A stretch of DNA of 64,000 nucleotides from an uncultured Selenomonadales bacterium (GTDB taxonomy: Bacteria > Bacillota > Negativicutes > Selenomonadales > Selenomonadaceae): assembly GCA_937877655.1 (NCBI GenBank), contig CALFJC010000176.1, positions 4,607 through 68,606 of the forward strand. The letters run 5' to 3'. Positions within the stretch are counted from its first letter, which is position 1. Each line of letters opens with the position of its first letter. Below are positions 5,278 to 63,715 of this stretch, piece after piece. The translations under genes were made by a program, and so were the position numbers. Under the pieces are notes generated by a model, which did not search any database, was not told where the DNA came from, and saw nothing but the letters and a program-made list of their open reading frames with translations.

Positions 5278-6273
5278 ATGAGTGAAATTGTTTTGCATTA
5301 CACCCGCGCAGGGCATGTTGAAAATATTCATCGCGGCGACGTTGCGGCGGTAAATTGCAAGGGCGAAGTCGTGGCGGCGGTCGGCAATGCGCATTTGCCG
5401 ATGTTTTGGCGTTCGGCGGCGAAACCTTTTCAAGCCTTGCCCTTCGTGAAAAACGGCGGGCTCGAAAAATATTCCATAACGGAAGAAGAACTTGCGCTTT
5501 TGGTCTCCAGTCACAGCGGCGAAGAAAATCACGTGGCACTTGTCAGAGAAATTTTGTCGAAACTCGGACTTGATGAGTCGGTTTTGGATTGCGGAATTGT
5601 TCGCCCGATGAGCGGCAAGGCTTTCAAAAAAATTATTGCGGCGGGAGAAAAAGTTTTGCCCGTCCACAATCCTTGTTCGGGAAAACATTCGCAGATAATC
5701 GCGCTGTCAATGATGCTCGGCATTCCCTACGAAGGCTATACTCAACCCGAACACGAAGCGCAGAAAATTATTTTTAAACATGTGGCAATGGCGTCGAAAA
5801 TGCCCGAAGACAAATTGGAAATAGGAATTGACGGTTGCGGCGTACCCGTATTTTATCTGCCGATTTATAACATGTCGCTTGCCTATGCAAGACTTTCAAC
5901 GCCTAGTAAAGGCGATTGGGGAGAATATGAAGACGCGGCAACAAAAATTCGCGACGCAATGAGTAAATATCCGCAAATAATTTCGGGGACGGGCAGAATC
6001 GATTTGGCGGTTTCTGAAGTCACGGGCGGAAGAATCATTGCAAAAATCGGCTCGGACGCGGTTTACTGCTTGGCTGTCAAAGACGGCGACTTGGGCATAA
6101 CTTTTAAAATTGAGGACGGCGATTATGCGGCGGTAACTCCAATGACAATCGCCGTGTTGAAAAAATTGGATTTGCTGACAAAAGACGAGGCGGCGGAGTT
6201 GGATAAAATTTTCCCGCCCGTTTTAAAAAATCATCGCGGAGAAATTATCGGCACGATTGAGGCTGTCTTTTGA
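5278..6273 (+). CDS. Asparaginase II family protein (PF06089-like)
   Basis: Motifs SHSGEENH and NPCSGKHS. GGGAGG lies 7 nt before ATG 5278. Confidence 0.7.
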   Translation: MSEIVLHYTRAGHVENIHRGDVAAVNCKGEVVAAVGNAHLPMFWRSAAKPFQALPFVKNGGLEKYSITEEELALLVSSHSGEENHVALVREILSKLGLDESVLDCGIVRPMSGKAFKKIIAAGEKVLPVHNPCSGKHSQIIALSMMLGIPYEGYTQPEHEAQKIIFKHVAMASKMPEDKLEIGIDGCGVPVFYLPIYNMSLAYARLSTPSKGDWGEYEDAATKIRDAMSKYPQIISGTGRIDLAVSEVTGGRIIAKIGSDAVYCLAVKDGDLGITFKIEDGDYAAVTPMTIAVLKKLDLLTKDEAAELDKIFPPVLKNHRGEIIGTIEAVF

Positions 6274-61977: not shown

Positions 61978-62168
61978 AAGAAGTCGCGGCTGGTGCCTCA
62001 GCTACTATTACTTTGAAGTTATCGCCGTAGATACTGACCGAACCCATTGGTTGGCTTTCAGAAATCAACACAAGGGAATTATAACAACAGTTTTTTCAAA
62101 AACCAATAACGCCGCTTAATATCTTTCGAGACACGTTTTCGATAAAAAATATTTTGGAGGAATGCATT

Positions 62169-62510
62169 ATGAGGAAAGTCGATTTTATCGAGCCGGGAAT
62201 TATGGGAAAACCTATGGTTCGCAATTTGCTCAAGGCGGAATTGAAGTTAAGGTTTACGACATTAACGCCGCCGCCGTCGAATAAATGATTAGGGCGGGCG
62301 CGAAGTCTGCTACAACGCCCAAAGAAACTTTTGCGGGACAAGACGTTGTCATTACGATGGTTCCGAATGGAAAAATTGTTGAATCGCTTTTGACGGGCAC
62401 GGACGGAATTTTGGCTGGCGTCAACGAAGGAATGATTATCGCCGATATGAGTTCCGTTACTCCGACGCAGTCAAAACATTTCACGGAACTTGCGGCAACT
62501 CCGAAGAAAA
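62169..62510 (+). pseudogene. 3-hydroxyisobutyrate / tartronate-semialdehyde dehydrogenase-like gene (GarR/HIBADH family), frameshifted and truncated
   Basis: MRKVDFIEPGIMGKPMVRNLLKA (Rossmann loop altered), then a frame change to GIEVKVYDINAAAVE-stop-MIRAGAKSATTPKETFAGQDVVITMVPNG..ADMSSV. Similarity ends at about residue 115 of an expected 290 or so. Confidence 0.7.
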
Positions 62511-62531
62511 AACTCTCGAAGAACATAAAAA

Positions 62532-63283
62532 ATTGCCGAACGGATCTGCGTCGGCGGCGACATTGAAAAAATCTCTGCGCGGCGCGAAAATGTTTACGAC
62601 TTCAATAAAGTTATCGTCAATGCCGTTGATTATGTCGACGTGGAAATTTTTGCGCTTGCGCTGATAAAGTCGGGAAAAAATTTCATGTTCAGAACGGCGG
62701 CGGCGTTCACAAAAATTATCGGCGGCGAAGATAAATCGCTTTTAACCCGCGCAGAACTTGATGACTAAAAAAATCCCAACGGCGGCTTGATAATTGCAGG
62801 CTCTCACGTCAAGAAAAACACCGCGCAACTTGATGAACTTAAGGAAATTTCTTCGGTTGCGTTCATTGAGTTTGATGTTTCAGATTTGGGCGCAGTCGAT
62901 AAAATTATTCGGCAGGCGAAAGAAAATATTTCTCGCGGACAGACGACGGCGATTTATACCGGCAGAAAAGTTTTGGACGTCGGCAATGCGGAAAAAAATC
63001 TTGCGGCGTCCGTGAATATCTCCGAAGCTTTGACAAGCATTGTCAATCGAATAAATGTTCGCCGAAATTTTTAATCGCGAAGGGCGGAATTACTTCTTCT
63101 GACGTTGGAACAAAAGGTTTAAGCGTCAAAAAAGCTTTGGTACTCGGTCAAGTGGCGGCGGGCATTCCCGTTTGGAAAATAGGCGCGGAAAGTAAATTCC
63201 CTGTCATGATTTACATAATTTTTCCCGGCAACGTCGGCAACGTCGACACTTTGAAAAGTATCGTTGAAATGCTCGGCGCATAA
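62532..63283 (+). pseudogene. Four-carbon acid sugar kinase (DUF1537, OtnK/YgbK-like), N-terminally truncated with an in-frame stop and a frameshift
   Basis: VIVNAVDYVDVEIFALALIKSGKNFMFRTAAAF..stop(62766-62768)..GGLIIAGSHVKKNTAQLDEL.., then a +1 shift near 63055-63062 into PKFLIAKGGITSSDVGTKGL..GIPVWKIG..FPGNVG. Confidence 0.7.
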
Positions 63284-63322
63284 AAAAATTGGTTTGCTCG
63301 ACGTTCCTCCGTTAAGCAAACC
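63282..63322 (-). terminator. Intrinsic terminator that works only on the minus strand
   Basis: Minus strand reads GGTTTGCT..AGCAAACC followed by AATTTTTTT. On the + strand the run is A-rich and precedes the stem. Confidence 0.65.
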
Positions 63323-63626
63323 ACAAATAAACCCACTAAAATATTTTAGACTAAAATTTTTGCAGTGACAAATTTTTTCGTGCGGCGATTTGCCTCCGCA
63401 GGACGATGCCCCGCCCTGTGTTCTTACAAACTTTTGCTTTAGTCTGTCTGTCCTACGCCGGAGTGCTGATTTTACCCTTAACTTTGCCCCTCCATCCGGG
63501 CGTTGTGGTGGGCGACAGGGGTCAAAGGGCTCGGGCACTGCTACAGTAGTTTTGAGGGCATATTTGAACTGCCTTTTACACCGGGTCTGTCCAAAATTTT
63601 TACTTTTCACCTCTCACTAATATTTT
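63285..63626 (-). ncRNA. Candidate unclassified structured ncRNA (about 340 nt) delimited by its own promoter and terminator
   Basis: A minus-strand TTGCCA-17-TATAAT promoter lies upstream and an intrinsic terminator downstream. The core (about 63380-63600) is clearly more GC-rich than its surroundings. There is no SD-led ORF. Possible helices include CTTTGACCCCT/AGGGGCAAAG and TGCCCGAGCCC/GGGCGGGGCA. Confidence 0.4.
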
Positions 63627-63632
63627 TTTTAC

Positions 63633-63661
63633 ATTATAGAACGCAAAAAGTGTTTTGGCAA
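63633..63661 (-). promoter_or_regulatory. Sigma-70-type promoter on the minus strand
   Basis: Minus strand: TTGCCA (63661-63656), 17-nt spacer, TATAAT (63638-63633). Confidence 0.6.
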
Positions 63662-63715
63662 TTTTTTGTGCGGCTTATATCCCCATAGCTAAAGCCGGGG
63701 ATTTTACGCCGCCTT

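Follow-up and report, generated by a model that had tools for sequence, protein, structure and literature searches.

A 64,000-nt stretch of DNA from an uncultured Selenomonadales bacterium (contig CALFJC010000176.1, positions 4,607 to 68,606; hereafter, the window) ends in the remnants of a sugar-acid operon. Between two of these remnants, on the minus strand, lies a segment (63718-63394) that is likely to be a relic: a 3'-truncated copy of an IS608-like, non-autonomous transposable element of the IS200/IS605 group, from a family found in one genus. The family appears to consist of gene-less derivatives of tnpB elements (palindrome-associated transposable elements, PATEs), in which the tnpB gene is replaced by a structured RNA domain that we will term module A. 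The features of the locus are listed in Table 1.

The neighboring plus-strand genes are in poor condition. The matches to the Pfam family NAD_binding_2 are spread across two frames, as are those to NBD_C, and the GntP fragment covers positions 299-347 of the 440 positions of the GntP_permease profile. An earlier note, which was made from the sequence alone, had called this region a decaying operon, and we agree. In genome G099, from the same genus, an intact orthologue of the otnK-like gene encodes 462 amino acids (aa). In G099, gntP is also shortened (L134 880-1491): a 203-aa N-terminal part abuts an unrelated PIN/TRAM-like gene. Thus, erosion of the locus for sugar-acid uptake is under way independently in more than one species of the genus.

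The earlier note had described a promoter and a terminator on the minus strand that together enclose a GC-rich, non-coding stretch. As observations, the near-consensus promoter, the hairpin plus T-run, and the GC-richer core all stand. (A simple scan for terminators does not list the hairpin, which has a loop of more than 8 nt and is missed for that reason.) The GC content is 0.52 at 63400-63599, as compared to 0.43-0.46 in the flanking sequence, and the repeated box GGACAGAC is indeed present twice in the core. The note had found no open reading frame (ORF) led by a Shine-Dalgarno sequence, but a 163-aa ORF (63610-63119) covers the stretch. This ORF is spurious because it is conserved in no paralog. 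The idea that the promoter and the terminator form one unit did not hold up either, as discussed below.

Table 1. Features at the 3' end of the window.
Feature	Position	Strand	Remarks
GarR-like dehydrogenase and otnK-like four-carbon acid sugar kinase remnants, frameshifted	62154-63283	plus	Pfam fragments
Native otnK-gntP intergenic DNA	63284-63393		Kept beside otnK in relatives
Hairpin GGTTTGCT..AGCAAACC	63322-63291	minus	Followed by AATTTTTTT; T-run ends at 63282
Deletion junction, GCGGAG microhomology	63394-63399	minus	Element CCTGCGGAGGAGACC vs. native gntP 5' untranslated region TCGCGGAGACAAATC
First omega-RNA scaffold hairpin, CAGGGCG-GGGCAU-CGUCCUG	63399-63418	minus	Homologous to tnpB 3' ends on C63, C154, and C140
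GGACAGACAGAC box, predicted long-range partner GU(A/U)UGUC	63442-63453	minus	Partner strand deleted in window
Structured 5' domain: P1, P2, apical hairpins, P5	63446-63596	minus	Type-2 covariance model, 61.4 bits, E = 3e-14
A-rich leader with Shine-Dalgarno-like GAGAGGTGA (63615-63607), putative relic of tnpB 5' untranslated region	63607-63632	minus	No conserved ORF after it
TTGCCA-17-TATAAT, sigma-70-type promoter	63661-63633	minus	11/12 consensus positions
Left end, subterminal hairpin GGCGGCGTAAAATCCCC..GGGGATATAAGCCGC	63670-63718	minus	Hairpin also ahead of C140 tnpB
GntP-family permease gene, 3' third	63717-64000	plus	Codons 1 to ~300 gone
Transposon-adjacent motif remnant	63719-63722	minus	TTCT here, TTAT at empty site of three genomes

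Repeat family and its insertion sites

The genome that contains the window (G000) is a 3.03-Mb metagenome-assembled genome (MAG) in 181 contigs. It contains three copies of the family and one partial copy, with 77-90% identity. The two paralogs of the window copy (C83:9699-10129 and C154:25922-26263) are 77-78% identical to it over about 250 nt. In the partial copy, which is on contig C147 (L009 6047-6300), the left-end hairpin is fused straight to the middle of a type-2 domain (see below), and the promoter is absent.

Across the genus, 16 of 76 species genomes carry the family, and the hosts are uncultured rumen MAGs of the Selenomonadaceae/Selenomonadales. A covariance-model search of 301 genomes, which represent 93 genera of the class outside of this genus, did not find the family. 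Also, when 185,579 species genomes and the JGI metagenomes were scanned for sequence patterns of the family, we obtained only copies from Selenomonad MAGs or the rumen and about as many other matches as would be expected by chance. (The metagenome scan yielded only three more usable copies.) As far as these searches reach, the family is confined to one genus of rumen Selenomonadaceae.

In our alignments, intact copies are about 430 bp long and have five parts: (a) a left-end hairpin of the type GGCGGCGTAAGACCCC..GGGGATATAAGCCGCC; (b) a promoter, whose TATAAT is kept in most copies of the family; (c) an A-rich leader that closes with GAGAGGTGA; (d) module A, a GC-rich segment of about 190 nt that occurs as two sequence subtypes and takes the place of the 1.1-kb tnpB ORF; and (e) a segment of about 135 nt with the motifs CAGGGCGGGGCATCGTCCTG.., GAGACC.., AGACTTC..GAAGC.., GTTGATAACGGAAT, CCCCCG..CGTGGGG, and AGTATGTCAA. 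In all intact copies, homology to the other copies stops sharply after GTCAA. Segment (e) is far commoner than the rest of the element, with at least six copies in G000 and up to about 11 matches in some relatives, and its copies are often at contig ends.

Two further observations are worth describing. First, two copies in G096 (L062 ~1440-1760, and L066 on the minus strand) lack the P5 hairpin and the first scaffold hairpin. These deletions are at GGAGG/GGAGAC microhomology and are the same kind of event as the truncation of the window copy. Second, G000 contains element-like promoter/leader cassettes ahead of ordinary genes (C96:15860-15960, C96:48330-48420, and C168:56470-56570), in the order T-run, TTGTATAATG, AGAAAAAATTTTAT, GAGGAG, ATG. 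Such cassettes could either reflect a strong promoter/leader design that is common in this organism or have been left behind as solo remnants of the element's left part.

Loci that lack the element show where it inserts. For the C83 copy, the corresponding locus in G018, which lacks the element, reads ..TATTAC|GAAGATGAT.., and the right-hand junction on C83 reads ..GTCAA|GAAGAGGAT... The empty site in G018 reads TTAC|GAAGAT, and the left-end flank of the C83 subfamily is (T)TTAC. For the window copy, homology to the gntP genes of relatives begins at 63717. The empty site, antisense to gntP, is GGTTAT|CATTTCC at three relatives' loci (L137, L135, and L140), as compared to GGTTCT|CAAAAGGCGGCG in the window. 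We conclude from these three empty sites that the window copy was inserted after TTAT (now TTCT), at about codon 300 of gntP. TTAT also precedes the left ends of the subfamily's other copies.

The pattern resembles that of IS608 from Helicobacter pylori, which has TTAC as its target and TCAA as its right terminus. The shared features are insertion 3' of a tetranucleotide (TTAC in one of our subfamilies), a right end of TCAA, hairpins a few nucleotides inside both ends, and no target duplication at the junctions that we examined. Unlike IS608, our element does not have tnpA or tnpB inside it, and its second subfamily uses TTAT.

The C83 copy disrupts a conserved small ORF, which in G018 has about 80 aa (MNNLPRFVKIGEERINVEE...) and of which only the last 30 or so codons are left beyond the right end (L007 5650-5790 vs. 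L024 1260-1560). Also, the spacing between glgB and the gene for carbonic anhydrase is about 1.4 kb in G013 but about 0.5 kb at the C83 locus, which suggests an adjacent deletion.

Could the family encode a small protein, either from the 163-aa ORF or from a shorter ORF behind GAGAGGTGA? The window does contain the ORF, a strong Shine-Dalgarno-like motif is ahead of it, and one frame that is common to the window and to C83 encodes EPFDPCRPPQR. However, we did not find a conserved ORF across copies or subtypes of the element: the start codons and the frames after the Shine-Dalgarno sequence vary, the indels between copies are not multiples of three, and (reading from the alignments) the type-2 copies have a stop within five codons of the Shine-Dalgarno sequence. 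The window ORF also passes through the hairpin and into antisense otnK, and the pattern of substitutions is one of compensation between paired bases, including G-U wobbles. A small protein is therefore very unlikely.

RNA structure of the family

Module A is a real structured RNA family that is absent from Rfam. For both subtypes, RNAalifold gave the same architecture from helices that differ in sequence: a closing helix of 9-10 bp with a bulge, a second helix, apical hairpins, and a separate hairpin (ACGCC..GGAGG..GC/GC..CUCC..GGCGU). Among the nine type-2 sequences, 97.5% of cells are paired and 12 pairs have changed on both sides, versus 5.5 +/- 1.4 in shuffled alignments (0 of 500 reached 12) and 0-1 if the structure is slid. 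Among the ten type-1 sequences, 97.9% of cells are paired and 8 pairs have changed on both sides, versus 2.0 +/- 1.0 in shuffles (0 of 500 reached 8) and again 0-1 if slid. These counts are from MAFFT alignments of sequences that are related to each other, and the structures were derived from the very same alignments. Paired changes are thus in excess of both kinds of controls, in both subtypes. Also, a covariance model that was built from type 2 only recovers all of the type-1 copies, at 53-80 bits, including the window copy (Table 1). The frequent G-U pairs indicate which strand is transcribed. The fold of the single sequence is unremarkable, as the z-score is -1.9 for the minus strand and -1.2 for the plus strand.

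The three hairpins of segment (e) show compensatory changes too, and these hairpins are also present in copies that are linked to tnpB. In the first hairpin, the compensatory changes are in the helix of 284-290 with 297-303. As for longer-range contacts, the earlier note had proposed that CTTTGACCCCT pairs with AGGGGCAAAG and that TGCCC-GA-GCCC pairs with GGGC-G-GGGCA, but covariation supports other pairs: GCCUUU is with an upstream AAAGGC, and GGGCGGGG is inside a local hairpin. RNAalifold also predicts a helix between the GACAGAC box and GU(A/U)UGUC, just before the right end (columns 211-217 with 385-391), whose columns are invariant or show wobbles only. There are two candidates for a pseudoknot, GACAGAC or GGAGAC with the GUC before the right end, and these columns are invariant.

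The earlier note had recognized no known RNA family in this stretch and had suggested a new one, and both statements held up. Our comparison to Rfam 15 included riboswitches, RNase P, tmRNA, signal recognition particle RNA, 6S, HEARO/IscB omega-RNA, ribozymes, and group I and group II introns. The window copy has no match at E <= 1. (The best match within the element is to SAM-II, at 22.5 bits versus a gathering threshold of 44, over the left end and the promoter region.) A full-length paralog has no match at E <= 5, and its best scores are about 16-17 bits, versus thresholds of 45-67. These sub-threshold matches are due to chance.

The Rfam results also bear on whether the element is a chimera of a self-splicing group I intron and an IS605 end (an IStron), or an ORF-less derivative of one. 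In the IStrons of Clostridioides difficile and Clostridium botulinum, an IS605- or IS607-type element combines a structured RNA on its left side with an omega-RNA at its right end, and gene-less copies exist. Our element's order of left end, structured RNA, omega-RNA, and right end is like that of these ORF-less derivatives from Clostridia. However, neither Intron_gpI nor any other intron or ribozyme model matches, even at E <= 5, and no more than about 150 nt are structured. Furthermore, our element carries its own promoter, and its logic is likely the expression of an RNA rather than splicing out of host transcripts. Finally, group I introns have a terminal G, but our element ends in A (GTCAA). 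We rejected this explanation, which is extremely unlikely, because of the lack of a model match, the terminal A, and the internal promoter.

Relationship to tnpB elements

Besides the element, G000 has three tnpB genes, which are at C63:18463-19572, at C154:36756-37871, and, with a frameshift, on C140. Several observations link these genes to the family. Segment (e) is found directly at or after the tnpB stop codon on C63 and C140, and it aligns to the 3' end of tnpB on C154. The left-end hairpin is upstream of tnpB on C140 and of several other copies. All three genes have -10-like hexamers (TATAAT/TAAAAT) and a Shine-Dalgarno-like leader upstream. The family thus appears to be a PATE that derives from an IS200/IS605 tnpB element and lacks the tnpB gene, because its left end, the expression signals of tnpB, the omega-RNA scaffold, and the right end are all shared with tnpB elements. 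(The window copy retains only the left one of the two end hairpins.) Degraded fragments of tnpB with pieces of the left and right ends are also present in G000, at C83:12825-13192 and C61:14627-15373.

The resident TnpB has the domains OrfB_IS605 and Cas12f1-like_TNB, and its catalytic motifs appear, by eye, to be intact in the translation. It matches the structures of TnpB from ISDra2 of Deinococcus radiodurans (PDB 8H1J and 8EXA) over its full length (E = 1e-54). Across the genus, relatives of TnpB are found in 13 of the 16 genomes that have the element and in 25 of the 60 that do not (P = 0.005, one-sided Fisher test, uncorrected for phylogeny or for the incompleteness of MAGs). The Y1 transposase TnpA (PF01797) was not found in G000, but MAGs under-sample mobile DNA. 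It is present in 10 of the 76 genomes, with intact copies among them, and in G032 (contig C37), a fragment of it is directly upstream of a tnpB gene with the same right end. G000 has at least five loci that derive from tnpB yet no Y1 transposase.

The closest precedent may be the PATEs of the ISGst elements of Geobacillus stearothermophilus (Meers et al., 2023, PMC10055086). It is common for PATEs to code for an omega-RNA that has to be used by TnpB in trans (PMC10055086). As in those elements, the protein gene is absent, the end hairpins are common to the resident tnpB elements, and the omega-RNA region is kept at the right end, so that TnpB (and TnpA) would be needed in trans. In contrast to ISGst, a covarying domain of about 190 nt, whose origin cannot be detected by similarity, replaces the tnpB ORF; the promoter and the Shine-Dalgarno leader of tnpB are kept and would drive that domain; the family is limited to one genus; and the window copy lacks the right end and most of the scaffold.

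Segment (e) can also be compared to the omega-RNA of ISDra2. In both, the scaffold has several hairpins and takes up the 3' end of tnpB together with the right end of the element (about 135 nt in our family and 116 nt in ISDra2). The last 116 nt of the ISDra2 RNA suffice, and its 5' region (-231 to -117) is dispensable (PMC10097598). Also, nucleotides -5 to -3 of the ISDra2 RNA form a pseudoknot with the 5' edge of the scaffold (PMC10097598), and the GUC before the guide in our family could pair with an upstream GAC in a similar way. On the other hand, there is no detectable similarity between the RNA sequences, the transposon-adjacent motif is TTAC or TTAT instead of TTGAT, and the region upstream of the scaffold is a dedicated non-coding structured domain instead of tnpB coding sequence. 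By position, segment (e) would correspond to the functional scaffold and module A to the dispensable region of ISDra2.

As module A takes the place of tnpB, we considered whether it descends from the 3' coding region of that gene. A few motifs are collinear (CAGCTGT, AAUxGCGG, and GACAGAGAC), which is suggestive. However, nhmmer gave only E > 1, global alignments had z-scores of -1.6 to +0.9, and the covariance model matches no tnpB locus, and these comparisons do not support this origin.

We propose the following model for intact copies. Transcription from the internal promoter would continue past the right end and yield an RNA of about 330 nt, so that the 16-20 nt beyond the right end become the guide. 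(For the C83 copy, the predicted target is TTAC followed by GAAGAGGATTCGGAAT.) TnpB from full-length elements elsewhere would bind the 3' scaffold in trans, and TnpB with its RNA would re-cut emptied donor sites (TTAC or TTAT and the flank), which would lead to retention of the element, as in other IS605 elements. Our best guess is that the 5' domain stabilizes the RNA or is involved in its processing. Read-through might also keep downstream genes expressed. Given the sequence comparisons, a PATE whose ORF-less omega-RNA is used by TnpB in trans, and of which the window copy is a relic, seems to be the best explanation.

Several points weigh against this proposal. As a Y1 TnpA was not found in G000, the family may be immobile there. 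Module A is without detectable kinship to tnpB, and the guide-RNA model offers no reason for its conservation, as the closest omega-RNA that has been studied does not need the corresponding region. The predicted long-range helix of GACAGAC with GUAUGUC shows no compensatory change. The transcript, its ends, and its binding by TnpB are all inferred. And given that the promoter of the window copy still matches at 11 of 12 positions, some selection on that copy is possible.

An alternative is that the covarying 5' domain of about 150-190 nt, with P1-P3 and P5, represents a new class of structured RNA cargo of IS605-type elements, located upstream of a minimal omega-RNA and with a function beyond stability; the window copy, in which only the promoter and this domain are left, could then be at an early stage of domestication. 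For example, such a cargo would license or time the loading of TnpB, sense a signal, or, as the guide often overlaps the Shine-Dalgarno sequence of the adjacent gene, couple TnpB binding to the translation of that gene. We consider this doubtful.

Another possibility is suggested by the location of the copies relative to host genes. Of about 17 units whose flanks can be resolved, at least eight are 15-140 nt upstream of a substantial gene in the same orientation. Among the products of these genes are LysR, CydA, beta-carbonic anhydrase, a GntR-like protein, and alanine dehydrogenase. The right-end flank often opens with the downstream gene's Shine-Dalgarno sequence. (Such sites include L008 10254-10272, L038 ~1685-1700, the right-end flanks in L013 and L056, and L007 ~5650-5790.) Speculatively, insertions might be non-polar because of read-through, the guide might overlap the ribosome-binding site, or the element might act as a mobile promoter/leader or couple TnpB to translation. 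In the strongest form of this idea, the main selected effect of the element is its outward promoter and structured leader, acting on the downstream gene, and the homology to omega-RNA merely reflects the end that is needed for transposition. In the window, the promoter would then fire into native DNA and be stopped by the resident hairpin. The location of the units, the Shine-Dalgarno sequences in their flanks, and the retention of the promoter in most copies fit with this. However, the upstream placement may instead reflect AT-rich targets (TTAT/TTAC) and the survival of non-polar insertions. Such a cassette would also leave both the conserved 135-nt scaffold, with its compensatory changes, and the enrichment of TnpB unexplained. 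As a replacement for the guide-RNA model, it is decidedly unlikely, but the two are compatible.

The window copy and its fate

In the window, resemblance to intact units ends at 63394-63399. To place this junction, we aligned the window to both an intact unit and the locus in G099, where the element is absent. In a search of the genus with 63000-63420, the sequence from about 63399 down to otnK was found beside otnK in four genomes (G099, G022, G063, and G084). In G099, the intergenic stretch lacks the element and runs straight into the start codon of gntP (L134 1500-1612). It follows that the element lost about 110 nt, comprising its right end and two scaffold hairpins, in the same single deletion that took codons 1 to ~300 of gntP. 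What is left of the scaffold amounts to about 25-35 nt. The sequence of events would be insertion after TTAT, antisense to gntP, and later a deletion between GCGGAG repeats, which left the promoter and the 5' domain joined directly to native DNA. If so, the insertion of the element into gntP helped to destroy the operon.

This explains why the promoter and the hairpin, which the earlier note had joined into one unit, do not belong together. The hairpin and T-run are native, as they are also found in element-free G099, and no paralog has such a 3' end. The chimera of promoter, 5' domain, and terminator is unique to G000: it was not found in the other 75 species genomes of the genus. As an interpretation, then, the structured RNA family stands, but the orphan gene that is maintained for its own function does not, given that the locus is a truncated copy of a mobile element in front of a pre-existing "terminator."

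The native DNA has some features of its own. In G099 (L134 1583-1612), a hairpin and T-run have the same place and orientation as those at 63282-63322 in the window, but the sequence of the stem is wholly different. This structure is oriented against both flanking genes, and it may be a conserved terminator that blocks antisense transcription or an element for RNA processing. A second promoter-like site (TTGTCA-17-TAAAAT, 10/12, at 63371-63343 on the minus strand) is also within the native intergenic DNA. It is kept in G099 (CTTGTCA..TTTAAAAT) and aims at the hairpin about 20 nt away. Weak similarity in the 3' tail had raised the possibility of a second left-end remnant, which we rejected, as the tail is native intergenic DNA that is kept in relatives.

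Could the window copy nevertheless have been domesticated as a stand-alone gene that yields a discrete small RNA of about 310-340 nt, with a 5' domain that has its own function (as a trans-acting regulator or by binding a protein)? Structural selection on the 5' domain is clear in two subtypes, the equivalent 5' region of the omega-RNA is not needed by the closest TnpB that has been studied, and the window copy retains 34 of 38 pairs as well as its near-consensus promoter and an end with a hairpin and T-run. However, the terminator predates the fusion, and the fusion occurs in G000 only. The four broken pairs are the most of any type-1 copy that we aligned, and two of them are in the closing helix. 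The neighbors are pseudogenes. Also, the domain is never seen outside of elements that are bounded by the left or right end, or outside of the genus. We consider an exapted small RNA to be unlikely. A PATE relic accounts for the window copy: to judge from what is left, it can most likely neither guide TnpB nor transpose, and it is a relic that may still be transcribed. It is probably dead.

Hence, the window locus should not be catalogued as a new gene for a stand-alone small RNA, as it is transposon debris that a deletion has fused to native DNA. Instead, it appears to document how an IS605-type element helped to erode a sugar-acid operon. The family as a whole seems to be a gene-less transposon with a dedicated promoter for an ORF-less omega-RNA, in which the gene for the nuclease has been replaced by a compact RNA domain under strong structural selection. 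If this domain improves the stability, processing, or loading of the guide RNA, then it would be relevant to how TnpB promotes the retention of transposons and to the engineering of compact guide RNAs for TnpB. Finally, the copies that lie just upstream of host genes, with the putative guide over the ribosome-binding site, suggest a testable link between the RNA of a transposon and the expression of its host's genes.

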